A stretch of DNA of 64,000 nucleotides, taken from positions 44,485-108,484 of the forward strand of contig CAWIXI010000019.1 in assembly GCA_963840025.1 (NCBI GenBank). Direction: 5' to 3'. Made by a program: the position numbers and the translations under genes. The notes under the pieces are model-generated. The model was not told the DNA's origin, did not search any database, and saw only the letters and a program-made list of their open reading frames with translations. Origin of the DNA: an uncultured Planctomycetota bacterium. Lineage in GTDB: Bacteria; Planctomycetota; Planctomycetia; Pirellulales; Lacipirellulaceae. Shown here one piece after another: positions 836-55,965 of this stretch (positions within the stretch are counted from its first letter, which is position 1; the number at the start of each line of letters is the position of its first letter).

Positions 836-2521
836 ATGAAAAGACAATACGTCGGAATCATCCCATTTTTGCTAGAAGCAGTTTCAAAGCCGCGGCGGAG
901 AGGGGGACAGTCCCGTTTTCCTCGCAAGCTCGGAAAATTGGGACAGTCCCCGGCGGTTTTGAAACTGCTTCTAATCGGATTTGTTGCATTTGGTAGCTCG
1001 CTTCTGTTCGGATCGCCTGATGCTCTAGCGGCTGGAACCAACAGCCGTCCGAACATCGTGTTCATCTTCTCCGACGACCACGGCTACCAGGCGATCAGCG
1101 CCTACAACAAACGCTGATCGAAACGCCGAACATCGATCGGATCGCCGAGGAAGGGATGCGGTTCGACCGCTGCTACGTCACCAACTCACTCTGCGGACCG
1201 AGCCGCGCGGTCGTGCAGACCGGGAAGTACAGCCACAAGAACGGATTCTACAAAAATGGCGACAAGTTCGACGGCTCCCAGCCCACCATGCCCAAAATGC
1301 TTCAAGCCGTCGGCTATCAGACCGCGATCGTCGGCAAGTGGCACTTGGAAAGCGACCCCACAGGCTTTAACTACTGGAACGTCTTGCCGGGGCAGGGCGA
1401 GTATTACAACCCCGTCCTGATCGACAACGGCACGAAGTTGAAACACACGGGCTACGTCACCGATATCATCACCGATTTGGCGCTCAACTGGCTCAAGAAG
1501 AAGCGCGACCCCAAAAAGCCTTTCTTGCTGATGTATCAGAACAAGGCACCGCATCGCAGTTGGTTGCCGCCGATTCGCAAACTGCATCAGTTTGACGACC
1601 AGACAATTCCGCAGCCCCCCACATATTTCGACGACTACTCGCACCGCGCCAGCACGGCCCGCAGTCAGCGGATGGAGATTGCCCGCGATTTGCTTCCAGG
1701 CTCCGATTTGCGGATGTGGTTTCCCATGGATGAAACGGACGTTAAGAAAGATCCTTGGTGGAACCACATATTCAGTCAGTTGACACCTGCCGAGCAGGAA
1801 GCTTTTATTGCGGCCTACACGCCCAAAAACGACCGCCTGCGCGAGGCCAACCTCAACAGCCAACAACTCGCCAGTTGGAAATATCAGCGATTCATCAAGG
1901 ATTATCTCCGTTGCGTCGACGCGGTCGACGAGGGCGTCGGCCGGATCCTCGACTACCTCGACCAGAGCGGCCTGGCCGACAACACGATCGTCGTCTACAC
2001 CAGCGACCAAGGCGTCTTCCTGGGCGAGCACGGCTGGCTCGACAAACGCTGGATGTATGAACCATCATTGCGGACGCCGCTCTTGGTCCGCTGGCCAGGC
2101 AAAGTCAAGCCCGGCAGCGCAAGCGGCGACATTGTTTCCAATGTCGACTTCGCAGAGACGTTCTTGGACGTCGCTGTGCGCCGACATTCCGTCGGACATG
2201 CAGGGTCGCAGTCTGGTGCCGGTCCTCACGGGCCACACGCCGTCCGACTGGCGGAAGGACTTCTACTATCAGTACTACGAAGGCCTCAACGGCCCTCACC
2301 ACGTCCCGCGGATGTACGGCATCACCGACGGCCGCATGAAGCTCATCCACTATATACCTACCGGTGAGCAGGAGTTCTTCAATCTGGACGTCGACCCACT
2401 CGAGCTCGGCAAGAACTCCGAAGAGTATCTCAAAGAGCACCCCGAGGTGGAGACGCGATTGAAGCAACAACTCGCGTCGCTGCAGAACAAGCTGGAAGTC
2501 CCACCGGACCAATTGAAGTGA
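836..2521 (+). pseudogene. Cys-type S1 sulfatase (N-acetylglucosamine-6-sulfatase-like), frame broken twice (pseudogene or assembly indels)
   Basis: Three fragments. ORF 836..1117 has a signal peptide and [19 protein letters not shown]. The frame of ORF 1156..2367 has [36 protein letters not shown] (C-x-P-x-R FGly motif) and GKWHL. The frame of ORF 1808..2521 has [14 protein letters not shown]...FFNLDVDPLEL. Frame changes lie near 1105-1115 and 2160-2175. Confidence 0.85.
873..973. repeat. MITE-like palindromic element, copy 1 (97-bp body GAAGCAGTTTCAAA...TTTGAAACTGCTTC flanked by TA on both sides)
   Basis: Terminal inverted repeats TAGAAGCAGTTTCAAA(G/A)CCGC and two internal GGGAC(A/T)GTCCC palindromes. 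Its reverse complement matches 52963..53063 with 3 mismatches over 101 nt (manual alignment). It lies inside the 5' coding region of the sulfatase ORF starting at 836 and is stop-free in that frame. Confidence 0.75.
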
Positions 2522-19459: not shown

Positions 19460-19535
19460 CGGCACGGCATCGAGCGTGCCTTACAAGGGGAGACATCGCC
19501 AACGGGATCACGCCACATCTCGTGAGGGCAATCGT

Positions 19536-20536
19536 ATGCAGGCGAAATGGCGAGGCGTCAAGGCGTTTACGCTGATTGAACTGCTCGTGGTTATTGCCAT
19601 TATCGGCATTTTGGTGGCGCTCTTGCTGCCGGCAGTTCAAGCGGCGCGCGAGTCGGCGCGCCGGACGCAATGCACAAATCAGATTAGGCAGCTAGCCTCG
19701 GGGCGGCAAACTTCGAGTCCGCCAAAGGGCGTTTGCCCGGCGGTACGGGGTTTTCTGGAAGCCCGGACGACGACACAGGTACCTCCGGCGGACGACGCGG
19801 TGGAAGCTCGGGCCCGGCGTACTCGATCATCCCGCCCCATTACAATGGTCTAGGATGGATTGTAGAAATTCTACCGTACATCGAGCTCCAAGCGCTGAGC
19901 GACGTCTTTGCACCATTTCGTGATCTTGATTTCGATTCAAACGTGTATAAAAAACCGCCCGAGCTGTTGGAGGCGGTGAAGATTCAGCCCGACGGGTTTG
20001 TGTGCCCCTCCGATCCGACCGCGCGGGACCTGATCACGACGCAATATCAGTGGCCGAACATACCAGTGGCCACCACGAATTACCGCGGAGTGATGGGGTC
20101 GAATCAGATGGTCTCGGACACCCACAGCTTTCCGATCATTCTGCCCCTGCAAGAATTCTGCAACGATGGGCGGGCTCGCTGCAACGGCCTGATCTGGCGC
20201 ACCAGCGCTCAGTTTCCCGTAAGGCTTCGACAAGTCATCGATGGGACGAGCAAGACGATGATGGTTGGCGAAGACCTGCCTTCGCACGACTGGCACACCA
20301 TGTGGTCCTTTTCCAACGGTGACTCCAGCAGCACCTATGCCCCATTGAATTACACTCTGAACAATCCAGACCCAGAGCAATGGTGGGACATGCGGGGATT
20401 TCGCAGCCACCATCCTGGCGGTGCCAACTTTGCGATGGCCGATGGGTCGGTGCACTTCATCCAGGAAGACATTGATTTCGATTTGTACAAGGCACAGAGC
20501 ACCATCGCCCTACAGGAAGTACTGCCGGACAATTAG
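19536..20536 (+). pseudogene. DUF1559 / H-X9-DG protein with prepilin-type N-terminal cleavage/methylation domain, one frame break
   Basis: [54 protein letters not shown] is in ORF 19476..19853. [14 protein letters not shown]...GWIVEILPYIE...HHPGGANFAMADGSVHFI (H-x9-DG) is in ORF 19733..20536. The break lies near 19690-19700. Confidence 0.85.
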
Positions 20537-20608
20537 CTAGACTGGCCGCAGCCATCCTGTCGCCGGCTGCGAGTTGTGTTCTTGATTGCGATCAACTAAG
20601 GCTCAAAG

Positions 20609-21022
20609 ATGAAGAAATGGGTTGTCGCGCTTTGCGTTAGTGTCTCATTTGGTTTTTCGGGTTTGCTTGGTTGTGGATCGTCCGGGTTTTCGTCGACCGA
20701 GGGAGTCGTCACATTGGACGGCGAGCCCTTGGCGAACGCGACGGTCATGTTTCAATCGCCAAACATGCCGATGGCGACTGCCAAGACGAATCAGGACGGC
20801 AAGTACCGTGTCGAAACTGGCGGCACCAAGGGAATTAAGCCGGGGGAATACTCGGTCACTGTCGCGGCATATGCGAAAGGAAAGAATGGCGGCGAACGCG
20901 CACCGAATCTCATTATCCCCCAGCGATATCTTCAACCGGAGACTTCAGGTCTGAAGGCAGAAATCGGATCTGGGACGAACCGGGATGTCAATTTCGAGTT
21001 GGTTTCCACGCCGTCGAACTGA
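20609..21022 (+). CDS. small lipoprotein with carboxypeptidase-regulatory-like (transthyretin-like) domain; DUF1559 partner
   Basis: Intact 137-aa ORF with lipobox LLGC at the end of a signal peptide and [20 protein letters not shown]...[10 protein letters not shown]. It is a paralogue of 28525..28917 and 31648..32073. Confidence 0.75.
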
Positions 21023-21029
21023 GCATGCA

Positions 21030-22585
21030 ATGAATGCCTCGGGCCAATATTGCCGAAACGACCGTCCTTGCGAATCGCACCGAATCGTGCCGGCTTGGAA
21101 TTCAGTGATTGCGGCGCGTGTCGGTTTCGCGGTCGGCCTGTGCCTGTTTGCGTATCAGCCGGTGTTTGCCGCGGAGCAAGCCGGCCCGAGGCCGAACATT
21201 GTGTTCCTGATGACCGACGATCAGTGTTTCTATTCGCTAGGATGCTACGGCGTACGGGACGTGCAAACGCCCAATCTTGACCGATTGGCCGCGGACGGAG
21301 TGACGTTTGACAAGTATTATGTGACCACTGCTATTTGCATGGCCAGTCGTGCGACGGTCATGACAGGCCTAGTCGAGTATCGCACGGGTTGCAACTTCAC
21401 GCACGGTCCGTTGCTTCGCGAACACTGGAGCCGGTCGTACCCATTCCAACTGAGAAAGGCCGGCTATTTGACGGCATTCGCAGGCAAGTTCGGCTTTGAG
21501 GTTGCCGACAGTCCCCGGGGAACGGGCTCTCTGCCGAGCGAGGACTTTGATCACTGGGCTGGCGGTCCGGGACAGACGTCCTACAAAACCGCCGACAACC
21601 CGGCGCTGGCCAAGTATGCCGAGCAATTTCCTCACTCGACGTTGGCCTACGGTGCGTTCGGCAGCGATTTCATCCGCGATGCGGCGAAGCAGACATCGTC
21701 CCTTTTGCTTGTCCATCAGCTTCAAAGCCGCCCCATCGGCCAGCGACCCCGGACCCTCGCTTCGACGCGGTTTATGCGGGAAGCGTGTTCGCCAAGCCGG
21801 CCAACTTTGGCCGCCGAAACGGCGAACACTTTTCTCCGCAGAGTCGACAAGGCAGGCAGTACCAGCGCTTTGTGACGTGGCACTACAACGACGATTACAA
21901 CGGCGTCATGGCGACCTATTACCAGCAGGTCTACGGCGTCGATGTCGCGGTGGGAATGATTCGTCGTGCTCTGGAAGCGTCGGGCGCGGCGAAAAACACG
22001 GTGATCATATTCACGTCCGACAACGGATTTATGTGCGGTTCTCACGGGTATGGCTCGAAAGTGCTTCCTTATGAAGAGGCATCCCGCGTTCCGCTGATTG
22101 TCGTGGATCTTCGTAACTCGGAGAAGAACGTGGGGGGTCGTTGCGACGCTTTGTGCGGCAACGTCGACATAGCGCCCACCATTCTGGCCCTCGCGGGGAT
22201 CAAAGTGTCGGACGATTTGGATGGACAGAGCCTGTTGTCGCTAATCGACGATCCGACGTCATCGATTCATGAGTCGCTGCCGTTGATCAACGTGTGGGGG
22301 CCCGCGGCAGTTCATAGTCTGGCGGTCGTCACCAAGGACTGGAAGTACATCTACTGGCCGTACTCAGAGCGTGGTTTCGTCCCCTGTGAAGAACTATACA
22401 ACTTGGCGGACGATGCGCTGGAGCTTAAGGAACTTTCCCACGACCGGCGCTATGCCGACACCCTGCAACGGATGCACGCCATGTACGATCGAGAAGTGGA
22501 TCGGTGGAAGCAGATGACCGTTCACTACCACGGATATGAAAAGTACGGCACAGTTTTTGATCGTCGTTTGCGGTCGAGTGACTAG
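21030..22585 (+). pseudogene. Cys-type S1 sulfatase (C-M-A-S-R motif), two frame breaks
   Basis: [21 protein letters not shown]...[15 protein letters not shown] is in ORF 20985..21875. [12 protein letters not shown] is in the frame of ORF 21496..22074. [25 protein letters not shown]...IIFTSDNGFMCGSHG is in the frame of ORF 21785..22585. Breaks lie near 21690 and 21733 (C-run). Confidence 0.85.
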
Positions 22586-23135
22586 CAATCGAATTTGCAT
22601 GCACGCGTGCGGCGTCGAAGAACCAGATGGCGGGTTTCATGCAAGTTCCTCGGGCGGGTTTCGTGGACGACGAAATTCGAAATCTCACAATAGGCTATCC
22701 CGTTTGGTCCCGGACTTGCTTGGCTCATTTTGGGGGTAACAATCAGTGTCGGATCGCTTTTTTGGACAAATCAGGTGAATTTGTTGGCACTGCCTTGAGA
22801 TTCGGCGACAAATTACTTTTGATCAGGGGGTGCGCTGCCGCTGGCGGGGGGCGATGGGCGGCTGATGTTGTGACTTTAGCCGGATGCGCTATCGGTGAAA
22901 GGATTCGGTTAGCACCTCGATCCAACTTTTCAGCAAGTGCAGCTGCGGGAGGTCGGTTGCGTATCGTCGACGATGGCGGTCTTGCTTGCGCTGATCAGCG
23001 GAGCAATTTCCTTCGGCAGCGGTACAAAAAGGCGTTTTGCCGCAGCGCCCATCAGTTCAACGTCTGTGGCTTCTGTCTGGTACACGAAAGTACTTCACTC
23101 TTTTCTCGACGATCGACCGAAACTTTCAGTACTAA

Positions 23136-26100
23136 GTGAGGGCGGACATGCGATTCCTTGACTTGCGACTTGCGATTCTTCTCGGGTGCCTCCTGTTTGC
23201 GGCAAACAAGGCGGTGGCGCAGCCACTGATAGACGACAAATTTGACGACGGCGATGTGACCACCAACACCTTAGGCAACGGCTCGGGCTGGAATCGCCGG
23301 GGATTCGGCGGCAGCATCCTCACCGAATCCGGCGGCGTGCTCGACTTGAGCCTGAATAACAGTGCCAACGCAGGCGCACTGCTTTCGAAGGAGACGTTCA
23401 GTGCCAACGGCGCTCAAACCATGTACGGCGAATTCACGTTTACCGAGATGGTCCGTCCTGACGCTCGGCCGGAGCCTCCAACAACGCCGGCACGTCTCGG
23501 TGGTCGTCCGGGTTCTACGACAACAGTTCAGACCCCGACTCCGGACGGCTTTGACTCATTCGCGAACGCGGGCCAGCGATCGGGCTTGTATGTCTCCTTT
23601 AAAGTGCGCTCGGACGATTTCGGGATACCCATCAACGGTGATCAGGGGGCTTTGTATTACACTACGTATGACGGATCGACGTTTACGCCAAACTTGTTGG
23701 CGAGCTGGACCTGGGACCGCTCGGTTTTTCAATTATGCGGAGGATGAGCTCGCAGCCGGCTTGCGGAGCGATCGCGTCCCGCAGGACCTGATCGTTTCTG
23801 ATCTTCGGGCAGAACTCGGGGCAAATTCGACGGGCTATAGCCTCAAATTCTTCTCCAGTGACGATAGCGCCGTCCTGCCGGCAGACATTTCCGGTACTTG
23901 GGCCGACGCCGGGATCACGGACCTGTCGGCCTTGGACGTCGGTTCGCGCCGACGGATTTGATGGACAAAATGGACAAAACACAGATATCAAGATCGACCG
24001 CATCTACGTCGATGATGCGCCTCAGCGCGACGCCGACTACTCAGGCCAGCTGTTCACCTGGGGCCAGCGCACAAACAATAGCGGCAATTGGAGCGACACC
24101 GATGCCTGGAAGAAGGGCGGTGTCGATACGACAAGCCATCCGATCGTAGTCACGGCGGTTCGCAGCCGCCGATGCGGCGGAAGTGGTCGGCGGCACGGTC
24201 CACGTCAATGCCGACCAAGGGGCCTGGACGCTGCAAATCGACAACGGCGCCACGGCCAATATCGCCAGCGGCAAAACGCTCGAGATCATTGAAAACGAGT
24301 CCAATAGTGCCACGAATATCCTGGGCGGCGGCAATTTGGTGCTCGGCGGAACTCTCATCACGCCCACGATCGGCGGCGCCGGCAACGTCTCGTTTGCGAA
24401 CGGAACCTTGCGCGTTGATCACGGGTCGTTCGCGTCGCTGACCACTTCCAGCGACGCCACGGTGTCCAACGCCAGCGAAGTGAGCGTTGGACAAGCAACC
24501 CTCGGCGCAGGCGACACGCTGTTCAAGCAACGAGGCCGGGACGCTCATTCTGAGCCAGTCCGGCGGGGCCAACAGCTTGGCAGCCACTTCGGCGATCGAC
24601 GTGCAGAAGGGCACCGTCGCCGGCGTGAACGATGCGACCCACAACGCGTTCAGCTCGGCGAGCATCAGTCTCAACGGCGGCAATCTGACGCTCAGCGCCA
24701 GTGCGGGTAGTTCCGCGGCCTTCGACTCGGCGATTGCAGCCAACGAGTCGGGTGAGATCCACGCCGCGCAGGTGACCGGTGGGTTGGCCGGCCAAACCGT
24801 GACGCTCGGCGGTACCAAGAGCTTCACCATTGCGACCGACAAAACGGTTATCCTGCGGACTTTGGACGGCTACACCATGAACGTGGCGGGCCCCGCGTCT
24901 GGCGACGGCACACTCAGCATCGGCGACGGCGCCAAGGTCAACCTCACCGGGTCGGTGACGACCAAATACGTCGGTTTCAGAGGAGATATTAGCAACGTCG
25001 GTGTTGGAGGCGGCGTCGTGCCCGGCGAAGCGTTCCGATTCGTACCCGTCGCAACGACACCCGACATGAATGCGACCTTCGCGATGGGAGGCGGCGCCGG
25101 TGTGGTTCTCGAAGGCGAGGTGAACGGCTCGCTCAGGCTGTCTAACAGCTCGAATAGTTACACGGGCACCACGAGGATCTTGCGCAGGCGCTGATTCCCG
25201 ATTCCGCCCTACCCGGCGACTACAACGGTGATTCAGTCGTCAACTCGTCCGATTACGACGCCTGGAAAGCGAGCTTTGGCAGTTCCGTGGCCCCAGGGTC
25301 GGGTGCCGATGGCAACGGCAACGGCGTCGTGGACGCCGCCGATTACACCGTCTGGCGTGACCATCAGGGCAATTCCGGCGGCGGGAGCGGCTTGCCAGCG
25401 GCTTCTTTGCTGCAGTTCGAGGGCGGCGGCGTAACTGAAGTCGCGGTCCTGCAAACCAGTCACGATTTTGCGCGAAATATCGGTACCGCGGCGGGGGAGG
25501 TGAACTGGGTCGCGCGGGCGGCTTTGCCGCGGCGGGAGGCGGCACGGTGAATGTCACCCTCGAGGGGGTGCCGGCCTGGTTTGGGATAGCGCCACGGCTG
25601 GCTTCAACGGTCAAAACTTGAAGTTCGGATCCGGAACGGCCAATGGCCGAGTGGTGTTGACCAACAACATCGATTTGAACAACGCCCAGCGGTTTATCCA
25701 ACTTACCGACAACCCGGATGTAGATACGGACGTCGCCGAGATTTCCGGGGTGATATCTACCTCGACGGGCACGGACGATAACCTCACCATCCGCGGACAG
25801 GCGGATTTCCCAGTGGCAGGCTTACTAGTTTTGTCGGGTCACAACACCTTCCATACGCTGCAGATCGGCGAAAATACGGTGCAGGCCGTCGATAGCGTGG
25901 GTCTGCCATCCACGGCAAACCTGGTGTTGCGGGCCAGCACGACGAGCAGTTTGCCGGCGGTCTTCGCCACCAGCAACGCCGCCAACGGGCACGCGTTTAA
26001 TCGCAACATTGGCGCCGGCGCTGGTGAGGTACAGTGGGGCGCGAATGGGGCTGGCGGTTTCGCGGCCGTCGGTGGCGATTTGACCGTGACGCTCGAAGGA

Positions 26101-27207
26101 GGGGCCGATCTGACATGGGCCGACCCCGACACCGGCTTCAACGGCGCATCCTCAATCGTTCAACTCGGTTCCAACGTGGCCACCGGCGTGACGACGTTTA
26201 CCAACAACGTTTCTGCTAGCAACACCGTCGAGTATTTTGAAACCTTCGACAATCCACTGTCGAACGCCGACCGTGTGGTCATATCCGGCAATTACACGGG
26301 TGCAAGTAACTTCCGTGTTGACGGTGACGGCGTGGTGGAATTGAACGGCAATATAAGCATGAGCAACAACTTGGTCCTGGTGGACAATCCGTTTGACGGC
26401 GTCCTGAATGCTCAGATCAACGGAACCATGCTCGTTGGCAATAACATGAGCCTTGACATCTCTGGTGCTCGCGCCTTTGTCAACGGGACGGCTTCGGTGG
26501 ATAACCTACTCCAAGACCGAGTTGGCAACACGCTCGGCGGCAGCGGGACAATTAAGATGATCGACGACGAAGACACCGGCGGCGGCAGCCAGCAGGCCCA
26601 AATTCAGGGCACGCTCAACCCCGGTTCCGATTTCGACAAAGTTGGCAAGCTGACGTTCGACCTCACCGCCTCGCCGAACGACCCCAGCGCCGGCGAAGTT
26701 CGGTTCCAAAATGGCTCCTTCTACGAGATGGAGTTTGAAAACGATGGCGGGGTAAAGCATGACACGACTGACATCAAGTGCACCAACCAGATCGGTTTGA
26801 TTCAGTTGGGCCTCGCCACCGACGAAACGTGGAATCTCGTGCTCGACGCCCTCGATGACATGACAGGGCTGGTCAGCGGGTCTGATGAGTTTGACCTGCT
26901 GACCTGGGACGGCAACAATGATTTCGCAATTAACGGTACGGTCGAAGGCGCTAGCACGTCTGGATTGGTCGACAACGTCGTGCTCAGTTCCACTGGTGGG
27001 TTCGACGTGAACAGCGCAACAGTCCATTTTGAGGTTGCGGGTGATTTTTCCGGCCGCGTGTATGTTACCGGATTGGCTGCCGCTAGTGGCGCCGGTGCGT
27101 TGGCCGGAGGGCAGGTTCCGGAACCGGCAGGCTGCATGTTGGCAGTGGTTGCGGCAGTTGCGGTTCTGGTGGGGAGCCGCCGCTACGGAAGGCTCCTCGA
27201 AGCCTGA
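23136..27207 (+). pseudogene. giant (~1350 aa) secreted surface protein: LamG-like N-terminus, autotransporter-associated beta-strand (PATR) repeats, internal dockerin-like segment, PEP-CTERM anchor; about seven frame breaks
   Basis: The signal peptide MRFLDLRLAILLGCLLFAANKAVAQ is in ORF 23136..23747. Further fragments come from ORFs 23362..23961, 23858..24292, 24183..24710, 24487..25194 (...SNSYTGTTRI), 25287..25550 (GDYNGDSVVNSSDYDAWKASFG...DGNGNGVVDAADYTVWRDHQG) and 25618..27207. The last ends QVPEPAGCMLAVVAAVAVLVGSRRYGRLLEA. Frame changes lie near 23715, 23945, 24160, 24530, 25180, 25512 and 25566. Confidence 0.7.
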
Positions 27208-27368
27208 GATCGTGAGTCGGCAGCGGTTGGCTCGGGGGCGGTCGAAAGACGCATGGGGCAGCGCCCGAGCCAGTCGCGCCGGCTGCACGAAGCTGTCGCG
27301 ACCGGCGCGAATGGGGAACAGAGCGAGTTGTACCGGTTGATGACAGCTTGACGGCTGAGGGAGCGGTG

Positions 27369-28525
27369 ATGAAACGCAATTCGCTCACGGTTCGGGCTCC
27401 ACGTCGCTCATGCGGTTTCACGCTTATTGAGTTGTTGGTGGTGATCGCCATCATCGGCATCCTGGTCGCCTTGCTGCTGCCTGCGGTGCAGTCGGCGCGA
27501 GAAGCGGCACGCAGGACCCAGTGCGCGAACCAACTGCGGCAACTGGCGTTGGGATGCCTGACCTTCGAGTCGTCCCGCAAGTATCTCCCGCCCATCGCGG
27601 TCATGCGCCCCGGCATGAAGCCCTCGGAAAGTCATGCGGGCTACGACTTGATGTCGGAGGAAATCCTGGTCCGGAACGCCGAGAATAAGCGCGGCCACAG
27701 TTGGATCGTCGAGATTCTTCCTCAGATTGAAGAGCAGGGCCTCGCCGATCGCTACGACAAGACGGTCAGCCCGCTGCAGAACATTGTGGATAACCATTTC
27801 GAGATCGTGGACATTCCCGGACTCTATTGCCCGTCGCGGCGGCGGGGGGTCGAGTCACCGGATCAGCAATACATGCTGCTGACGTTCCAGGGGCCCGAAG
27901 AAGGGCCAAATCCTTTGTCCCAACTCAATCTGCCGCCTGTCGGCGGGACGGACTATGGGGCGGTGATCGGCGCCGGGAATTGCTACGACAATTTGGGTTA
28001 CAAGGGAATGTTCCTCGGGTACATCTGCGTGGGCGTAACCGGTGCGGCTGCGGGGCCGATGATGCCTGATCAGGAAGGAAGGGGAGCCAAGTTAAAGGCC
28101 ATCATCGACGGAGCGAGTCATACCATTCTGCTCGGCGAATTGCAGCGGCTTTGGGCCTCCAGCGACGACCCGCGTTTTCCTGGCAACGGGCGCGACGGGT
28201 ACCCCTCGGCGCGGAGTGTGGATGGCTGGCTCTTCGGCGGCAGCCCGACGAGTTTCGATGGTCAGATCTCCGTTACTTCGGACCTTGAAGAAAACCGATA
28301 TTTGGCCGGCGGCGTGAACTCGTGGTTCTTTGAGCACGCCGGCAGCGAGCACCCGGGCGGCGCCAATTCGCGTTCACTGATGGGTCGATACGCTTCCTCA
28401 GCGAGAATGCGGACCCACTGATCCTGATGGCGGAAACGACGCGAGGGGGTGGCGAATTGGAGGCCGGCGACCTTACAGCAACGCTCAGTTCGCTGTTCAC
28501 CACCGTAACGGGAGGGCGGCGATAG
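27369..28525 (+). pseudogene. DUF1559 / H-X9-DG pseudopilin-like protein, array copy 1, one frame break near the C-terminus
   Basis: [52 protein letters not shown]...[13 protein letters not shown]...EHPGGAN is in ORF 27348..28421. After a missing T near 28366-28372 the tail reads [31 protein letters not shown]...GGRR and stops at 28523-28525. Confidence 0.85.
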
Positions 28526-28917
28526 TGAATCGTCTCTGCGGTTGCTCGGCGATCCTGGCCGCTTGTCTAGTGGCTGGCGGCTGCAGCAAATCCGGCGACC
28601 GGCCGGACCTTGGCGAAGTCACCGGCGTGGTAACCCTCGATGGAGAGCCATTGGCGAATGCGAGTATCTCGTTTACCGAACCAGGCTTCCGTTCCTCTGT
28701 CGGCAAAACCGACAGTGAGGGACGGTATGAACTGATATACATCCGCGACATCAAGGGCGCCGCGGTCGGGACGCACACCGTAAGGATCAAGTGTTTCGCG
28801 GAACCAGGGCAGCACGTTAAACAAGTCCCAAGGAAATACAATGACGAGTCGGAGCTCACCCAAGAGGTGAAACCCGGCCAAAATGTCATCAATTTCAATT
28901 TGAAATCGAATTCGTGA
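28525..28917 (+). CDS. small lipoprotein with carboxypeptidase-regulatory-like domain; DUF1559 partner
   Basis: Intact 130-aa ORF. Its GTG start overlaps the upstream TAG by 1 nt. It has a signal peptide ending LVAGGC and [48 protein letters not shown]. Confidence 0.75.
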
Positions 28918-29048
28918 TGTCCGGGCCTGCTTTCGGGAATAATCGGTTCCAAGGACAGGGAGATGATATGATGTTTCAGCACCGTGGGGAGCTAATACAT
29001 CGGCAAGGCAATCGATGCTTCGCCGAATTGCCAACGGGTTATTGTTGT

Positions 29049-29160
29049 CCGTTCAGCGGTGAGGAGATGGCAAAAATGACCAGACTGCGAAATCCTCGAA
29101 GTGGCGGCGGTTTCACGCTTATTGAGCTGTTGGTGGTGATCGCCATCATCGGCATCTTGG
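29049..29160 (+). repeat. near-identical 112-nt duplicated segment (leader + 5' coding region of DUF1559 copies 2 and 3), copy A
   Basis: CCGTTCAGCGGTGAGGAGATGGCAAAAATGACCAGACTGCGAAATCCTCG...CATCGGCATCTTGG matches 30451..30562 with 2 mismatches (manual alignment). Weaker similarity extends about 30 nt upstream and through the whole gene. Confidence 0.8.
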
Positions 29161-30245
29161 TGGCCTTGCTGCTGCCGGCTGTGCAAGCGGCGCGCGAAGC
29201 GGCACGCAGAACCCAGTGCGCAAATCAGCTGCGGCAACTCGCGTTGGCGTGCATGAACTTCGAGTCGGGCCACAAGTACTTCCCGCCCTTCGCCGTGATG
29301 GGTTTCGGTTTAGGTTCCTAGCCACCGCCCGGAACACCCGAACTGCTGGCCGAGATGGTGTCCGTCGACCAAGAGGGGCGGCGTGGCCACAGCTGGATCG
29401 TCGAGATTCTCCCGGAGATGGAACATCAGGCCCTCGCCGACCGGTACGACAAAAGGTTCAGCCCGCTGCACAATATTATGCGGAACAACTTCGTGATCAC
29501 CGATCTCCCCGAGCTCTATTGCCCGTCGCGGCGGTCATCCGTCGAGACGCCGCAACAACAGTACATGCTGATGACCGTCGAGGCGCCCGACAAGAGTTCA
29601 GACCCCCTTACGAAGCTGAATATCGTGGTCGGCGGCACCGACTACGGGGCGGCGGTCGCCGCGGGGAACTGTTACGCCAATCAGGCTAAGACAAGCTTCC
29701 ACTTCGGGCGTAATAGCGTCGGGAATGGTGGTTTGGCGGCGAGCCCGATGACGCCGCTCGGGCCGGGCAATGGGGCGAGCATAAACAAAATTACCGACGG
29801 CACGAGCGAGACGTTGCTGCTCGGTGAGCTGCAAAGGATCTGGGCGGAAAAGAGACGACCCCCGTTTCTCGGGCGGGTCTGGTCCCGCGGGCTTCATTGC
29901 CGGGCGCAGTAGTGACGGTTGGGTCTTTGGCGGCGGCGGGACAACTTTTGGTGCCGAGGTATCGACCGTGATTAGTGGTCTTGGCGAAGAGAGATCCACA
30001 GCGGGTGGCCTCAACAGTTGGTTCTGGGAGCACGCGGGCAGTGAGCACCCGGGCGGTGCCCATCTCGCTTATGCGGATGGCTCGGTCCACTTCGTCAGCG
30101 AGAACCTGGACCCATTGATCTTGATGGCACAGGCGTCGCGCCCGGGGGCGAAGTTGTCTCCGGTGATTCGTCTGCTGGCCTTGAGAATGCCATCCAAGCG
30201 CTGTTCACACCCCCGAGCAGTGATCCAACTGGAGGGCGACGGTGA
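29067..30245 (+). pseudogene. DUF1559 / H-X9-DG pseudopilin-like protein, array copy 2: in-frame TAG plus two frame breaks; downstream lipoprotein gene missing
   Basis: [51 protein letters not shown] is followed by an in-frame TAG at 29319-29321 that separates ORF 28914..29321 from ORF 29355..29912, both in the same frame. Breaks lie near 29845 and at the G-run 30144-30148. The corrected tail EHPGGAHLAYADGSVHFVSENLDPLILMAQASRPGGEVVSG...TGGRR stops at 30243-30245. Confidence 0.8.
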
Positions 30246-30450
30246 TCTTGGCGAAAGTTCGATGGTGGTTGGTTGAAGTAGCGGACGCTTGGCGCAGCCT
30301 GTCCGGCTGGCTGCTAGATAGTGTCCGTGGACGGTTCGGTGCATATCATTTGCATAGGACGTGGCTGAGGCGATCTTCCGTAATTTTGGGCAATGGACAC
30401 AACGGCCAGTCGATCGATTCTTCGGCGAATTGCCAATGGGTCAATGTTAT

Positions 30451-30562
30451 CCGTTCAGCGGTGAGGAGATGGCAAAAATGACCAGACTGCGAAATCCTCG
30501 GAGCGGCGGCGGTTTCACGCTTATTGAGCTGTTGGTGGTGATCGCCATCATCGGCATCTTGG
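30451..30562 (+). repeat. near-identical 112-nt duplicated segment, copy B
   Basis: See 29049..29160: 110 of 112 nt are identical by manual alignment. Confidence 0.8.
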
Positions 30563-31648
30563 TTGCCTTGCTGCTGCCGGCGGTGCAGGCGGCAGCGCGA
30601 AGCCGCCCGCCGCTCCCAGTGCTCGAATCAGCTTCGACAGCTGGCATTAGGGTGCCTAAACTTCGAATCGGCCCACAAATACCTCCCGCCCGTGATGGTG
30701 ATGGACGCCGATTTCAATCTTAACGGGAAGACACCGGGCCACGGCTTGAAGAAAGAGATGATGACCTTGGACCAAGAGGGCAAGCGTGGCCACAGTTGGA
30801 TCGTCGAAATACTTCCTCAGATCGAGCAGCAGGGCCTCGCCGATCGCTACGACAAGAAGTTCAGCCCGTTGCACAACATTATGCGGAACAACTTCGAGAT
30901 CGTGGATATCCCTGGACTCTATTGCCCGTCGCGGCGGCACGGGGTCGAAACACCGGAGCAGCAATATATGTTGCTGACTTTCCGCGGGCCCGGCCAAGAC
31001 AACGACGACCTCGCGAAACTTAATATTACGGTCGGCGGAACCGATTACGGGGCGGCGATTGCCGCGGGGAATTGCGAGGGAAACACAAGCAAGGATCCCC
31101 TGATCGGATACGCGTGTGTCGGCGTGACCGGCGCTGCGGCAAGTCCGATGACTCCCCTTCGCCGGGGCGAAGGGTCAAGCCTGGCAAAGGTAACCGATGG
31201 GACGAGCCATACTCTTATGCTGGGGGAGCTGCAGAGGATTTGGGCGGCGGACGATGACCCCCGCTTCGCCGGCCAGAGCGGAGACGCGGGGGTTGTCTCG
31301 GGACGCAGTGATGATGGTTGGGTCTTCGGTGGGTCAACGACGATGTTCACGACGTCGGTCACAACGACGATCGACGGTGTTGGCGATACGAGAGACTCGC
31401 CCGGCGGCCTCAATGACTGGTTTTTCGAGCACCCTGGCAGCGACCACGTAGGAGGGGCCCATCTCGCTTACGCGGATGGCTCGGTTCACTTCGTCAGTGA
31501 GAACGTCGACCCGCTGATTTTGATGGCGGAAACGACGCGAGCCGGTGGCGAACTGGCGTCCGACGAGGGGGCCGTGGGGAACATCGCGGTCGATCTCGAA
31601 GCGTTGTTCACGCCCCCGAGTGATGGTCCAGGTGGAGGGCGACGCTAG
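30469..31648 (+). pseudogene. DUF1559 / H-X9-DG pseudopilin-like protein, array copy 3, one frame break
   Basis: [42 protein letters not shown] is in ORF 30361..30723. [25 protein letters not shown]...[13 protein letters not shown]...[38 protein letters not shown]...GGGRR is in ORF 30563..31648. An extra G lies near 30594. Confidence 0.85.
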
Positions 31649-32073
31649 TGGGTGCCGCGAAGAACAGCCGCGGTTGGCGACATTGCTGCGTCGCATTGGT
31701 GGTATTCGCCGGCTGTCTGACCGTCGGCGGTTGCCGTACCGGCGCGGGCGACAGGCCGGACCTCGGCGAAGTCACTGGCGTGGTAACTCTCGATGGCGCG
31801 CCACTCCCGGATGCGAGCGTTTCATTCACCCAGCCTGGTTTCCGCTCGTCCGTCGGCAAGACTGACAGCCAAGGACGGTACGAACTGATTTACATCCGCG
31901 ACGTCAAAGGCGCCGCCGTCGGGACGCACGTCGTAAAGATCAAATTATTTAAGCAGAATGGGGGACAAGCGGACCAGCTACTTCCGAGCCGGTACAACTC
32001 CAAATCGGAACTCTCCCGAGAAGTCAAGCCCGGCCCAAACGTGTTCAACTTCGATCTAAAATCAAGTCCCTGA
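31648..32073 (+). CDS. small lipoprotein with carboxypeptidase-regulatory-like domain; DUF1559 partner
   Basis: Intact 141-aa ORF. Its GTG start overlaps the upstream TAG by 1 nt. It has a signal peptide ending LTVGGC and [48 protein letters not shown]. Confidence 0.75.
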
Positions 32074-33235
32074 TGGCGGAGCACCACGGCACAACGACAC
32101 TTTGCGGGGAAGCGATGAAAGAGTGCAATTCCGATCGATTTCGAGATACCGGCCGTCGTGGTTTCACGTTGATCGAGCTGTTGGTGGTAATCGCCATCAT
32201 TGGCATTCTCGTGGCGCTGCTATTACCTGCTGTCCAAGCCGCACGCGAGGCGGCCCGTCGCGCTCAATGTAAAAACAATCTCAAACAGCTCGGCATCGGT
32301 GCTTTAAATCACGAAAGCGCCTTCAAATTTTTGCCCACGGGCGGGTGGGGTTGGAAGTGGACAGGCGATCCCGACCGGGGCTATGGCTTGGATCAACCCG
32401 GCGGATGGTACTACAACATTTTGAAGTTCATTGAGGAAGGACCCATCCGTGACTTGGGCAAGGACGGCCAACCAGATGTGCTGACCCAACAGCAGATTGA
32501 CGGCACCTACGAAGCAGTCCAAACGGGAGTCAGTTGGTTTATGTGCCCGAGCCGTCGCGGCGCGGCGGTCTATCCTTTGGATCCGGCGACAGGCGGTTAT
32601 CTCACGGTGGGCAACAAAAAGCCGCCCGTCGTCGGGCGGAACGATTACGCTGCGAACACCGGCGACCGGTACAATGCAAGCACCTTGGCCAATACGGGAC
32701 CGGGCCTCCAAGGGAATCAGATTGTTAATCCCGACATCAGCAATTACGGCGCTAACCAGCGCACTTTGACGCGCCAGGACTCGGAAGAACGGCGGGTGTC
32801 GAAGGGGGTACGGGTGTGGTTCATGCATTTAGTATCATTAAGCTGGCACAAATCACCGACGGCGCATCGCACACGATTTTTGCCGGCGAGAAGTATATTC
32901 CTGCAGACAAGTACGACACCGGGTATGGCGATTTGAACCAGGGCAACGATCAGGGCTGGGATGAAGGCTGGGACATTGACAACTGTCGATGGACATTTCT
33001 CGCGCCTCGTCCCGATTCGTTTCGTTGGGTCGACGCAAGTGGCAACGACATCCCCGACACCAACAGCGACGGCTGGCTCAGATACCGTGCGTTTGGCTCG
33101 GCCCACCCCACTGGTTGCCAATTCGTGTTTGTCGATGGATCGGTGCATACCATTTCCTATGACGTGGACGAAGTTTTGTTCAAAAATCTGGGAAATCGAC
33201 AAGACGGCGAGCCGATTAACGATTCCGATTTGTAA
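32073..33235 (+). pseudogene. DUF1559 / H-X9-DG pseudopilin-like protein, array copy 4 (divergent paralogue), one frame break
   Basis: ATG 32073 overlaps the upstream TGA by 1 nt (alternative start ATG 32115). [47 protein letters not shown] is in ORF 32073..32936. [28 protein letters not shown]...AHPTGCQFVFVDGSVHTI (H-x9-DG) is in ORF 32816..33235. The break lies near 32775-32810. Confidence 0.8.
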
Positions 33236-52896: not shown

Positions 52897-52943
52897 GGGA
52901 ATCTACCGACGAGACCTACCAAATACCAACTCAGGAACATGTA

Positions 52944-54548
52944 ATGAAGTACCTTGTGCAACTAGAAGCAGTTTCAAAACCGCCGGGGACTGTCCCCATT
53001 TTCCGAGCTTGCGAGGAAAATGGGACTGTCCCCCTCTCCGCCGCGGTTTTGAAACTGCTTCTAATTGTCGCCACCGTTTTGAGCTTTGCTGAAACGCTGT
53101 GGGCGGATTCGCTTGCCGGCAGCCGCCCGAACATCATCGTCGTCATGACGGATGATCAGGGCTACCCTCCGGTCGGCCGACTGGGGCATCCGTGGATACA
53201 CACGCCAAACCTGGACGCGCTCTACGACAAGAGCACGCGCTTTACCCACTTTTTTGTCAGTCCCACGTGTGCGCCGACACGATCCGCCCTGATGACCGGC
53301 CGCTATCCGTTTGAGAACGGCGTCACGCACACGATCCTGGAGCGAGAGCGTCTGGCGTTAGACGCAGTCACGTTGCCGCAAATCTTAAAGTCGGCCGGCT
53401 ATACAACCGCCATTTTCGGCAAATGGCATTTGGGCGATGAGGATGCTTACCAGCCTGGCAACCGCGGCTTCGACGAATCATTTATTCATGGCGCGGGAGG
53501 TATCGGCCAGAGTTACGATTGTTCCTGTGCGGATGCACCCAACAATACATACTTTGATCCGGTGATTCGACACAATGGGACGTTCGTAAAGACCCACGGA
53601 TACTGCACCGATATCTTCTTTGATGCAGCTTTGGGATGGATTAAACAACATCGGCAGACGAAGGACGGAGATTCCCCCCAGCCGTTTTTCGTTTACATCC
53701 CCACAAATGCACCGCACAATCCGTTCATCGCTCCGAAGAAAAATGCGGACCGCTTCAAAAAGCTCGGATTCGACGAAGAGACCGCTGGCTTCTACGGCAT
53801 GATCGAGAATATCGATGAAAACATGGGACGGCTGCTTGCCAAGCTCGACGAATGGCAGCTCTTCGACAACACGATTGTCATTTTCATGTCCGACAATGGG
53901 ATGAGCCGTGGAGCGATGGCCGATCGGGGGCAACCGTTGGGTCAGCTGGCGGACGGCACGCCGTTGATGTTCTATAATGCCCACATGAAAGGACTCAAAG
54001 GGTCGGTTGACGAGGGAGGGGTTCGCGTTCCATTCTTCATCCGTTGGGACGGGCGACTCGCGGCCAATCGAGATATCGATCAAATTGCAGCTCATATCGA
54101 CCTGTTGCCGACTCTCGCAGAACTCGCGGGTGCGGAGATGCCCAAAGCGCGGGTCGATGGACGCAGCCTGGTCCCGTTACTGCAAAATCTCGCTAGTCCG
54201 TGGAAGGACCGATTTTTGTTCACCCATCGAGGCCGCTGGCCGTTGCATGCAAATCCAGACGATTTCAAATGGACCGGGTTTTCCGTGCGCAATCAGCGCT
54301 TTCGATTGGCGGGAACCGATCAGCTGTACGACATGCTGCGGGACCCGGGACAAACAGTGAACGTGATTGGCCATCATCCTGAGGTCGTCGACGACATGAA
54401 GTCCGCCTACGAGAGGTTTTGGGACGAAGCACGGCCTCTGATGGTTAACGAAAACGTCCCTTTGTCCACCACACGGCCATATCACGTCGCGTACCGCAAG
54501 CAAGAGAAAACGAGCGGAATCCCCGATTGGAAGAAACCGAGTCTGTAG
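52944..54548 (+). CDS. Cys-type S1 arylsulfatase; N-terminal region contains MITE-like element copy 2
   Basis: Intact 534-aa ORF with SRPNIIVVMTDDQGYPPVG, VSPTCAPTRSALMTGRYP, GKWHLG and FMSDNG. The signal-peptide h-region AAVLKLLLIVATVLSFAETLWA starts inside the repeat at 52963..53063. Confidence 0.9.
   Translation: MKYLVQLEAVSKPPGTVPIFRACEENGTVPLSAAVLKLLLIVATVLSFAETLWADSLAGSRPNIIVVMTDDQGYPPVGRLGHPWIHTPNLDALYDKSTRFTHFFVSPTCAPTRSALMTGRYPFENGVTHTILERERLALDAVTLPQILKSAGYTTAIFGKWHLGDEDAYQPGNRGFDESFIHGAGGIGQSYDCSCADAPNNTYFDPVIRHNGTFVKTHGYCTDIFFDAALGWIKQHRQTKDGDSPQPFFVYIPTNAPHNPFIAPKKNADRFKKLGFDEETAGFYGMIENIDENMGRLLAKLDEWQLFDNTIVIFMSDNGMSRGAMADRGQPLGQLADGTPLMFYNAHMKGLKGSVDEGGVRVPFFIRWDGRLAANRDIDQIAAHIDLLPTLAELAGAEMPKARVDGRSLVPLLQNLASPWKDRFLFTHRGRWPLHANPDDFKWTGFSVRNQRFRLAGTDQLYDMLRDPGQTVNVIGHHPEVVDDMKSAYERFWDEARPLMVNENVPLSTTRPYHVAYRKQEKTSGIPDWKKPSL
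52963..53063. repeat. MITE-like palindromic element, copy 2 (inverted relative to copy 1)
   Basis: TAGAAGCAGTTTCAAAACCGCCGGGGACTGTCCCCATTTTCCGAGCTTGCGAGGAAAATGGGACTGTCCCCCTCTCCGCCGCGGTTTTGAAACTGCTTCTA equals the reverse complement of 873..973 apart from 3 substitutions. It is TA-flanked and stop-free in the sulfatase frame. Confidence 0.75.
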
Positions 54549-54672: not shown

Positions 54673-55965
54673 ATGGCGATGAAAGTGGATCGGCGCAGTT
54701 TCTTAAGGCAATCAATCGGTAGTGCGGCCCTGGCATCGACCGCTTCGTGGACCGCCGCCAGCTACGCGCAAGTCATTGGCGCGAACGAGCGAATCCGCGT
54801 GGGCCTGATTGGAGCTGGCGGCATGGGGTCGAATCACGCGCAATGTTTGAGCGACCTGCGCAAGCCGGACAATATCGAGGTGGTCGCCGCTGCCGACTGT
54901 TGGCTCACTCGCGCCAAGCAGGCCGCCCAGACCATGGAATGCGCCTCACGCCTATCAGGATTACCACCGTGTGCTGGACAGCGACATCGACTACGTAACG
55001 ATAGCCACACCCGAACACTGGCACAAAGAGATGACCTGCGCCGCGCTGGACGCGGGCAAGGCGGTCTATTGCGAAAAGCCGATGACGCACACTATCGAGG
55101 AGGGCCTCGAGGTGGCGAAGAAGCAGAAGGCAACCGGGCTCCCCGTACAAATCGGCGTCCAGGCTACGTCGGACGACATCTATCGCCGAGCTGGAAAAGC
55201 GGTGCGAGATGGTGTGTTAGGAAGGGTCGTGCAGGCACAGATCGAGTACGTTCGACGGTACAACCATCAAGGCCCTTGCGCGACCCGGGCCCTGTAGATA
55301 AGTACCGGCAAAAGCCCGCCGATCTGGACTGGAAAGCGTGGCTGGGAAATGCCCCAGAATGCGATTGGAATCCGCATCACTATTTCGAATGGCGGTGCTA
55401 TTCGCCGTACTCGGGAGGCATCGCCACGGATCTTTTCATCCACCGGATCACGCGCCTGATGATCGCCTGCGACCTGCAATTCCCCAGACGGGTCGTTGGC
55501 ATGGGCGGTATCTGGCAATGGCCCGACGGTCGCGACCTTCCCGACAACTTCGAAATGATCTGCGAGTACCCCCGCGGAATGACCGTCTATGTGCTGGGAA
55601 CCCAGAGCAATCGCGTCGGCGTCGACCATCTCATTCGCGGTTATCGCGCTACCTTGCAATTTGTCGGCAACAAATGGGTTGCCAAAGACAAGGGCGGCAA
55701 GCAGTTGGCCGAAGAGAGCGGCGACGTGCAGGAAAGCATTTACAAGCACCACACGAACTTCCACCATCACCTTCGCAACGGTGAACCCCTGAATTGCCCA
55801 ATCTCACTCGCCCTGCCGGGTCTCGCCGCCGTCTGCATGGCCAACGAGTCCTGGCGCACCGGCCAGATGATGGCCTGGGATAAGGAATACCAACGGATGA
55901 TCCCGGCGCACGAACTCAAGGAACAAGACTATTTTCCGGAAGACCAGGGCAAGGCGAAAGCTTAA
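54673..55965 (+). pseudogene. TAT-exported Gfo/Idh/MocA family oxidoreductase, compensating pair of frame breaks
   Basis: MAMKVDRRSFLRQS (twin-arginine signal) and IRVGLIGAGGMGSNH are in frame 1. The central part AYQDYHRVLDSDIDYVTIATPEHWHKEMTCAALDAGKAVYCEKPMTH...VQIGVQ lies in the frame of ORF 54971..55297. Frame 1 resumes at DLDWKAWLGNAP...IATDLFIHRITR. Breaks lie near 54945 and 55280. Frame 1 stays open by chance, giving ORF 54673..55965. Confidence 0.8.

Follow-up and report, generated by a model that had tools for sequence, protein, structure and literature searches.

Two sulfatase genes of an uncultured Planctomycetota bacterium (Lacipirellulaceae; assembly GCA_963840025.1, contig CAWIXI010000019.1, positions 44,485 to 108,484) carry nearly the same palindromic sequence of 97 nucleotides (nt) shortly after their start codons, in the part of the gene that encodes the signal peptide. 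What is the inserted sequence, what moved it, and how can a gene for a secreted enzyme be read with such an insertion in its export signal? We addressed these questions in the 64,000-nt stretch that holds both genes (henceforth the window, meaning the whole stretch of DNA that was analyzed), in related genomes and in metagenomes. An original prediction, made from the letters of the window, had proposed a palindromic element of Correia or Rickettsia palindromic element (RPE) type with an IS630/mariner-like origin. We find that the sequence is one of the miniature inverted-repeat transposable elements (MITEs) and belongs to a real mobile, non-autonomous family that has a hairpin-forming interior and encodes no transposase. 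Taken as a whole, the account that we consider probable is that this MITE is mobilized by an IS5-type transposase and that the sulfatase genes are read through it from their native ATG codons, with the signal peptide rebuilt.

A palindromic element in two sulfatase genes

Positions 873-973 on the forward strand and the reverse complement of positions 52963-53063 form a gapless alignment of 101 nt with 98 identities and 3 mismatches (inverted repeat pair I1, 97%). The body of each copy is 97 nt long (copy 1, 875-971, + strand, nhmmer E = 8.7e-27; copy 2, 52965-53061, - strand, E = 3.8e-28). The two were inserted in opposite orientations, and a 9-nt bulge, GGCGGAGAG, comes first in the orientation of copy 1. 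A TA dinucleotide flanks each body on either side (873-874 and 972-973 for copy 1; 52963-52964 and 53062-53063 for copy 2), and body plus one TA measures 99 nt. On the right of copy 1, C971 and the TA make up a CTA codon for leucine.

The ends of the element are 19-nt terminal inverted repeats. The repeat, GAAGCAGTTTCAAARCCGC, occurs at exactly four sites in the window, the two ends of each copy, and shuffled sequence yielded 0.04 matches to this 19-mer even when three mismatches were allowed. In copy 1, the left repeat (GAAGCAGTTTCAAAGCCGC) occupies 875-893 on the + strand and reads (L)EAVSKP in the gene frame, and the right repeat occupies 953-971 on the - strand and reads AVLKLL. The palindrome GGGGACWGTCCC also has four sites in the window, every one within the two copies and two per copy; those of copy 1 are GGGGACAGTCCCG at 903-915 and TGGGACAGTCCCC at 939-951. 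In RNA folding, each copy formed a single long hairpin, with energies between -55 and -62 kcal/mol and z-scores between -8 and -10.6. The 101-nt match, the terminal repeats of about 20 nt, the paired palindromes, the TA flanks, the 99-nt unit and a strong hairpin right after the start codon had all been part of the original prediction, and all of them hold. Searching the window with an nhmmer profile of 57 family copies revealed no third copy, not even a degenerate one. The Rfam scan of the whole window gave zero matches at the gathering score, promoter scans around both copies gave no promoter, sigma-70-like or otherwise, and the terminator scan around both copies gave a single terminator-like site, which is the small stem of the repeat itself.

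The TA of copy 1 starts 37 nt past the ATG of sulfatase 1 at position 836, and that of copy 2 starts 19 nt past the ATG of sulfatase 2 at position 52944. The two sulfatases are only 33% identical to each other. Neither copy has a stop codon in the gene frame, and both encode LEAVSKP...AVLKLLL; because they lie in opposite orientation, their interiors encode different peptides, the very basic PRRRGGQSRFPRKLGKLGQSP in copy 1 and PPGTVPIFRACEENGTVPLSA in copy 2. In these respects too (offsets, orientations, a stop-free gene frame and distinct host sulfatases) the sequence was as first described. Sulfatase 2 is intact (52944-54548, + strand, 534 aa), and the gene call of the depositors, P0241, begins at its upstream ATG. 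Sulfatase 1 extends over 836-2521 (+ strand) in three frames (836-1117, 1156-2367 and 1808-2521), with frameshifts near 1110, in an AAA run, and near 2175, which is not a homopolymer; P0121 is an annotated 403-aa piece of it. These frameshifts are either assembly errors or pseudogene decay.

An exact empty site

The best homologue of sulfatase 2 (P0001) is 93% identical and has 501 aa, that is, 534 minus 33. The contig that carries it (L071) is syntenic with the window, with a PhoD gene followed by the sulfatase, at about 92% DNA identity. At the insertion point, L071 reads ATGAAGTACCGTGTTCTATTA directly followed by ATTGTCGCC. The window reads ATGAAGTACCTTGTGCAACTA, then the 97-nt body (GAAGC...GCTTC) and a TA, and then ATTGTCGCC. 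Relative to the window, L071 thus lacks exactly 97 nt and one TA, which defines the insertion as 97 nt plus a duplicated TA. The N-terminus of the empty allele, MKYRVLLIVATVLSFAETLWA followed by DSLAGSRPN, has the appearance of a classical Sec signal peptide with cleavage between the two segments. With the element excluded, the ratio of non-synonymous to synonymous substitution rates (dN/dS) between the filled and the empty allele is 0.11, and dS is 0.32. For copy 1 we found no orthologous empty site, the nearest homologue of sulfatase 1 being just 65% identical.

One short stretch next to copy 2 is more divergent than its surroundings. The 12 nt just 5' of the element (52953-52964, against L071 4278-4289) have 5-6 differences, CTTGTGCAACTA in the window vs CGTGTTCTATTA in L071, whereas the surrounding DNA differs at about 8%. 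The N-terminus here reads MKYLVQL in the window and MKYRVLL in L071. The divergence could reflect relaxed constraint on a displaced N-terminus or a change linked to the insertion.

A dispersed family that duplicates TA

We scanned one genome per GTDB species, and metagenomes, for exact matches to the 19-mer. The GTDB genomes contain 70 such loci, including about 25 in one Pirellulales metagenome-assembled genome (MAG; MFD06714.bin.2.12), 8 in a Lacipirellulaceae MAG and more in further Planctomycetota MAGs. Metagenomes contain at least 120. Dispersed copies sit at unrelated sites and their flanks are all different. Among the matches listed, GTDB and metagenomes together hold 115 non-redundant elements with paired terminal repeats. 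A long class of 97-102 nt is made up mainly of elements of 99, 98, 100 and 97 nt (31, 17, 14 and 8 copies, respectively, among the matches listed), and a short class of 59-62 nt has one palindrome only. Other subfamilies share the ends and have unrelated, still palindromic interiors (73-194 nt), and the elements range overall from 59 to 194 nt. This suggests that one transposase lineage may mobilize many unrelated hairpin cassettes.

TA is present at 160 of 229 element ends (70%) among the matches listed, against a dinucleotide background of 2.6%. The base outward of the TA is G at 63% and A at 22% of the ends, a preference that gives the target as YTAR/CTAG with the central TA duplicated. IS630 elements likewise duplicate TA and favor CTAG-like targets. 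We considered and rejected a 4-bp duplication of CTAG, given that the terminal G and C of the element are constant with flanks of TTA, GTA or TAA. The palindromic, non-autonomous, TA-duplicating element of the original prediction is therefore borne out by the 115 copies, the TA statistics and the empty site.

Several observations concern the edges of this family. Members with differing interiors include L058 1718-1847, L059 748-876, L063 4408-4505, L145, L160, L184, L189, the group L123/L126/L133/L181, L148 and L046 1335-1528, and one such member is in an Armatimonadota MAG. Two loci from different metagenome records (L119 3385-3482 and L170 1225-1322) have identical element and flanks and represent one insertion sampled twice; it has TG rather than TA on both sides. 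Matches to the 19-mer in Flavobacterium, Pedobacter and other non-planctomycetes were set aside as unrelated or chance, since they are single, unpaired and in a conserved gene. In the predicted 423-aa protein P0244, residues 30-125 or so contain several tandem units of GTVP/GLSP type, which resemble translated GGGACWGTCCC palindromes, ahead of a real gene. The palindrome may also be an independent repeat in planctomycete genomes.

A candidate IS5-type transposase partner

Three elements of 917-927 bp on metagenome contigs have the ends of the MITE (L073 220-1143, L110 202-1118 and L130 102-1028). Their left ends match at 19 of 19 positions in L073 and L110 and at 18 of 19 in L130, and their right ends at 16 of 19 in L073 and L110 and at 15 of 19 in L130. 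TA flanks are present for L073 and L110; L130 has no TA on the left. Each element encodes DUF4096 and DDE_Tnp_1 in two overlapping frames. The fused protein matches the NCBIfam model NF033580, "IS5 family transposase", over model positions 2-258 of 258 (E = 1e-64, 218.6 bits, cut-off 110). The NCBIfam scan of the partner returned only models of the IS5, IS982 and IS1182 types, and no IS630-family model scored. In a tblastn search, the partner transposase matched full-length L073, L110 and L130 alone.

Members of the IS427 group within the IS5 family measure 832-865 bp. Their inverted repeats span 13-21 bp, their direct repeats are 2 bp long, and a programmed frameshift joins their two open reading frames (ORFs) (PMC3281130). 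Placed by its architecture, the partner appears to be an IS427-group-like member of the IS5 family, with ISL2 or IS1031 as alternative subgroups. The MITE and its partner have only the ends in common, which makes the MITE one of "type II". The IS630/mariner-like origin proposed at first is not supported, because the only transposase-encoding elements that we encountered with these ends belong to the IS5 family. The shortcut from TA duplication to an IS630/mariner origin thus fails here.

Two pairs of terminal repeats lie 1.67 kb apart (L048 3589-5255 and L010 758-2423). We rejected them as an autonomous element, as they are two distinct MITE copies, each split at its first GGGACAGTCCC palindrome by the same insertion sequence of about 1.57 kb. 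The ends of this insertion sequence read AATACTGTTCGGCACG, 11 bp of the palindrome are apparently duplicated, and its frameshifted ORFs match the IS4-family model NF033592 (120 bits). This could mean that the MITE palindrome is a target of the nested IS4 element, or else that the composite itself moved again via the MITE ends.

In-frame insertions in signal peptides

The reading of the element depends on the position of the TA within the codons of the target. A TA at codon positions 1-2 meets TAG immediately and TGA at the far end, and this frame is closed. A TA that spans two codons gives the open frame RSSFKTA...GFETAS. A TA at codon positions 2-3 gives the open frame LEAVSKP...AVLKLLL, with a target codon NTA that always encodes Leu, Ile or Val. 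Open insertions in the LEAVSKP frame are therefore necessarily in hydrophobic contexts and end in an added K-L-L-L.

We removed the element in silico from both window copies. For copy 1, this restored a good signal peptide with cleavage before A (motif ALA, then A). For copy 2, it gave MKYLVQLIVATVLSFAETLWA with cleavage before DS, matching the empty allele (MKYRVLLIVATVLSFAETLWA, then DS). Without the element, both N-termini would be classical signal peptides. With the element in place, the sequences contain the hydrophobic cores LLLIGFVAFGSSLLF and LLLIVATVLSFA, each with a Lys before it and the original cleavage motif after it.

At least five in-frame copies lie in the signal peptides of real secreted proteins. 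A 100-nt copy is in a protein of 875 aa whose domains are Golvesin_C, Amidase_3 and fn3 (L022), a 97-nt copy reads MIRLANRSTRLLLGLFL and, after the element interior, VLAAVGAAVSAWPSPARA with cleavage before ITPE (L087), and another 100-nt copy is in the signal peptide encoded at L013. A 100-nt copy at L043 uses the other open frame, in a charged N-terminal region, and a 100-nt mid-gene copy is in frame inside an Lhr helicase, with Pfam domains on either side (L061). All five of the signal-peptide insertions in the LEAVSKP frame have a frame-preserving length (97 or 100 nt). Frame-preserving lengths account for 22 of the approximately 70 long-class copies (about 31%), and the probability of five in five would be about 0.31^5 = 0.003 if length were irrelevant. 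In two of the insertions the right-hand TA has changed synonymously within a Leu codon (CTA to CTG in L087, CTA to CTC in L022), as expected of translated sequence. The original prediction that an in-frame element is tolerated inside coding sequence is upheld by P0241 and by the in-frame cases elsewhere; its further step, translation through the element, is a likely reading and the better supported one.

Two database searches with the encoded peptides were uninformative. The 40-aa peptide of copy 1 gave no candidate in a set of 5.8 billion proteins, and the peptide of copy 2 gave 3 weak matches only among 1.84 billion representatives.

A further copy lies next to a different kind of export signal. 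At L053 (6952-7050, - strand), a 99-nt copy is found just 5' of the cleavage motif (G, then MTLIELLVV) of a DUF1559/N_methyl prepilin-type protein, and an open frame from an ATG 23 nt upstream runs through the element. The sum 99 + 2 is not divisible by three, and the ancestral start must therefore have been a different one.

Proposed reading through the element from the native start codon

We propose the following course of events. An IS5-family transposase (about 920 bp, two overlapping frames) would recognize the ends of the MITE, move it in trans and insert it at a TA within YTAR/CTAG, duplicating the TA. Both window insertions would have landed within the core of hydrophobic residues in a sulfatase signal peptide, at the TA of a CTA codon for leucine, and since body plus TA is 99 nt and has no stop in this frame, the gene would stay open. 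The most likely start of translation would be the native ATG; its Shine-Dalgarno-like motif is retained, and it is predicted to be unpaired. The ribosome would then unwind the hairpin and read 33 extra residues. The far repeat, A-V-L-K-L-L-L, would then contribute a positive charge and three leucines, joined to the residual hydrophobic residues. This would rebuild the charged/hydrophobic boundary, probably keeping the export signal working. The outcome would be a functional signal peptide, much lengthened at its N-terminus by the old N-terminal piece and the 33 residues. The original cleavage sites, between ALA and A in copy 1 and between LWA and D in copy 2, would be retained.

The choice of the native ATG agrees with its surroundings. 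GAGGAG (822-827) lies 8 nt upstream of the ATG of sulfatase 1 (836-838; together 822-838, + strand), and AGGAA (52933-52937) lies 6 nt upstream of the ATG of sulfatase 2 (52944-52946; together 52933-52946, + strand), in a stretch that is identical in the empty allele of L071. Shine-Dalgarno-like motifs also precede the native ATGs of L022 (GGAG) and L087 (AAGGA). In the centroid fold of the 5' region of sulfatase 2, the native AUG and the region upstream of it are unpaired; the fold of the copy 1 region is less clear, and its minimum free energy structure pairs the flanks. The covariation term that RNAalifold returned for 59 copies was only -0.15 kcal/mol. Sequence identity and palindromy thus keep the hairpin, which provides no independent evidence of selection on RNA structure. 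By analogy with ERIC and Correia elements (PMC2229807), an effect of the hairpin on translation or mRNA stability is plausible.

A number of points weigh against this account. The statistic on frame preservation is based on five cases, classified by eye, and translated copies are very rare in protein databases. The dN/dS of 0.11 mostly reflects the time preceding an undated insertion. The hairpin of -60 kcal/mol begins 19-37 nt past the start codon and could be a strong brake on translation. Sulfatase 1, which hosts copy 1 and has two downstream frameshifts, may be a pseudogene. The IS5-type partner was not found in the window or at the MITE-bearing GTDB loci, and all three partners come from short metagenome contigs of unassigned taxonomy. 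Finally, we infer translation through the element, the start codon used, continued export and any effect of the hairpin on expression from the nucleotide sequence.

Alternative fates of the host genes

The alternative that survives best, which we nevertheless judge unlikely, accepts the same MITE and lets the sulfatases restart at a TTG in the far repeat (959-961 in copy 1 and 53049-53051 in copy 2, both on the + strand). The old ATG and the element would become an untranslated leader or an upstream ORF, and the element would donate the start codon, the charged N-terminal region and the beginning of the hydrophobic core. The original prediction had held that nothing downstream of the element could start translation; it overlooked the in-frame TTG-AAA-CTG-CTT-CTA of the far repeat, which is read in every copy because the ends are symmetric. 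The predicted products would have textbook signal peptides, M-K-L-L-L-I-G-F-V-A-F... with cleavage before A for copy 1 and MKLLLIVATVLSFAETLWA (beginning M-K-L-L-L-I-V-A-T-V-L-S-F-A) with cleavage before DS for copy 2, and look more canonical than the versions that are 37-43 residues longer. The 5-6 differences in the 12 nt 5' of copy 2, set against about 8% elsewhere, are compatible with relaxed constraint on the old N-terminus, and L013 has no upstream ATG, just a TTG 9 nt before the element. Against a restart, the TTG of both copies is base-paired in the -60 kcal/mol stem, being locked there in the centroid fold of sulfatase 2, and no Shine-Dalgarno-like motif precedes it, whereas one precedes the native ATGs. 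A restart would also make the length of the element irrelevant, yet all five insertions are frame-preserving (97/100 nt) though copies of 98 and 99 nt dominate the family, and no copy of non-preserving length was seen to supply KLLL to an obvious signal peptide.

Somewhat less likely again is that damaging or neutral insertions struck genes that can be spared. With dozens of sulfatases in the genome, the gain or loss of a single one would escape selection, the frame would be open by chance and through recency, and the proteins would not be made or not be exported. The two frameshifts of sulfatase 1, one of them outside a homopolymer run, fit such inactivation, as do the many sulfatase paralogues in the window. 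The copies are 97% identical, which indicates recent insertion, and the element is open anyway in four of its six frames (two of three per strand). Taken alone, copy 1 makes inactivation more likely. Sulfatase 2, however, is intact over 534 aa with a dN/dS of 0.11 relative to its orthologue, and the neighboring PhoD gene is also broken, at a G-run, which makes indel errors of the assembly plausible and suggests these rather than decay. Moreover, in-frame insertions into signal peptides recur in unrelated large secreted proteins of other genomes, as does the insertion in the Lhr helicase gene, and outside those in-frame cases no element of any length was seen in clearly identifiable coding sequence.

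More doubtful still is a proposal that goes beyond read-through from the native ATG and makes the family a portable "signal-peptide-compatible" cassette. Its NTA target and its A-V-L-K-L-L-L/TTG repeat would let it survive preferentially in the export signals of the very large planctomycete secretome and could create or restart them, and the hairpin would add translational control of secreted enzymes.

We regard as very improbable an element derived from an insertion sequence of the IS630/Tc1/mariner type and related to Correia elements or RPEs, since the duplicated TA, the preferred CTAG-like targets and a size and palindromic build like those of Correia, RUP and RPE (PMC2229807) stand against an IS5-family DDE transposase in three of three transposase-bearing elements with these ends, 2-bp duplications that are also normal in the IS427 group of the IS5 family (PMC3281130), and, among the matches listed, no IS630-type element with GAAGCAGTTTCAAAACC ends at 191 loci.

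Gene context in the window

The PhoD gene upstream of sulfatase 2 is split at a G-run at position 51649 relative to contig L071, which is 92.7% identical there. Single-base frameshift sites in the window are thus found at 51649, at 1105-1117 and at about 2170-2180. A Gfo/Idh/MocA-like ORF at 54673-55965 is apparently spread over several frames, owing to indel errors of long-read assembly or as a real pseudogene. The window is rich in sulfatase paralogues (repeat families D4, D8, D10, D12 and D13). It also contains, at 19500-33000, a tandem array of at least 5 paralogous genes with a period of about 1.4-1.7 kb (repeat families D1-D3, D5-D7, D9, D11, D14 and D15). The products of the array genes are DUF1559 proteins that bear an N-terminal methylation motif of prepilin type and are typical of Planctomycetes; some members are apparently truncated.

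Significance and comparison with known systems

We found no literature on MITEs in Planctomycetes. The Planctomycetota MITE family reported here is thus previously undescribed, and its documentation includes both the exact empty site and a transposase candidate. It amounts to a natural experiment in signal-peptide plasticity, in which a 33-residue insertion in the middle of the core is apparently survivable if a Lys-Leu-Leu-Leu boundary is re-created. It also poses a risk for annotation: the N-termini of secreted proteins in these genomes can hold 33-34 foreign residues, and start calls (ATG vs internal TTG) are uncertain. Bacterial MITEs with TA ends, long stem-loops and in-frame fusions of open frames have been documented (PMC2229807), and ours represents a new family within this known kind.

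Closest in kind are MITEs of type II derived from IS5 elements, such as BrickBuilt and MITE293/700 of Porphyromonas gingivalis and ATR of Neisseria meningitidis, the last with ISNme1 (PMC4596501). Like these, the planctomycete MITE has only its terminal inverted repeats in common with a full-length IS5-family element, contains no transposase remnant, measures about 60-200 bp and reaches tens of copies per genome. Unlike them, it has a planctomycete host and unrelated end sequences, its interior forms a long hairpin that is nearly perfect and contains GGGGACWGTCCCC palindromes, and several of its copies are in frame in signal peptides. The duplications of BrickBuilt are variable, whereas the planctomycete MITE has a clean TA duplication in YTAR. 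The IS427 group (IS1248, ISPpa2; PMC3281130) resembles the partners, with their 917-927 bp, inverted repeats of 17-19 bp, duplication of 2 bp and two ORFs that overlap and depend on a frameshift; the elements in the window differ in being non-autonomous derivatives and not an insertion sequence.

Elements named in the original prediction are analogues, and neither the Correia nor the RPE label is supported as a statement of membership. RPEs (Ogata 2000, reviewed in PMC2229807) are also palindromic, in frame in conserved protein genes and tolerated, and the Lhr helicase insertion at L061 is a direct analogue. RPEs are, however, specific to Rickettsia and have no clear target duplication or known transposase (PMC2229807), whereas the planctomycete MITE has a duplication, an empty site and a candidate transposase, and its in-frame cases are mostly in signal peptides rather than surface loops. 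RUP of pneumococcus has been attributed to IS630-Spn1 (PMC2229807), in contrast to the IS5-type partner found here. Both RUP and the Correia/NEMIS elements of Neisseria share with the planctomycete MITE a size of about 100 nt, terminal inverted repeats, TA ends and a long RNA stem-loop, and in the Correia form of 107 bp, open frames are fused to genes (PMC2229807). Unlike in Correia/NEMIS, no IHF site or promoter boxes were detected at the window copies. The ends of Correia elements are also, we presume, unrelated to those of the planctomycete MITE, and RUP likewise appears unrelated in sequence. REP and REPIN sequences carry a tag (GTAG or CGTC) on one side, leave the target unduplicated and are associated with a RAYT tyrosine transposase. 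We ruled out this identity on the symmetric TA flanks with C or T before the TA (CTA followed by the G of the element), the presence of a duplication and the DDE transposase of the partner.

The nearest precedent for the effect on a protein is the YPAL/RU-2 fusion YPO1552 of Yersinia (Delihas 2007, reviewed in PMC2229807), in which MITE-encoded hydrophobic residues likewise form part of a predicted signal peptide. The Yersinia fusion creates a hypothetical new exported protein, whereas the planctomycete MITE would re-form pre-existing signal peptides of defined enzymes, repeatedly and in several genomes. What stands out here is that frame-preserving insertions into signal-peptide cores recur, and that the repeat encodes a KLLL (or TTG-KLLL) that would explain why they are tolerated.

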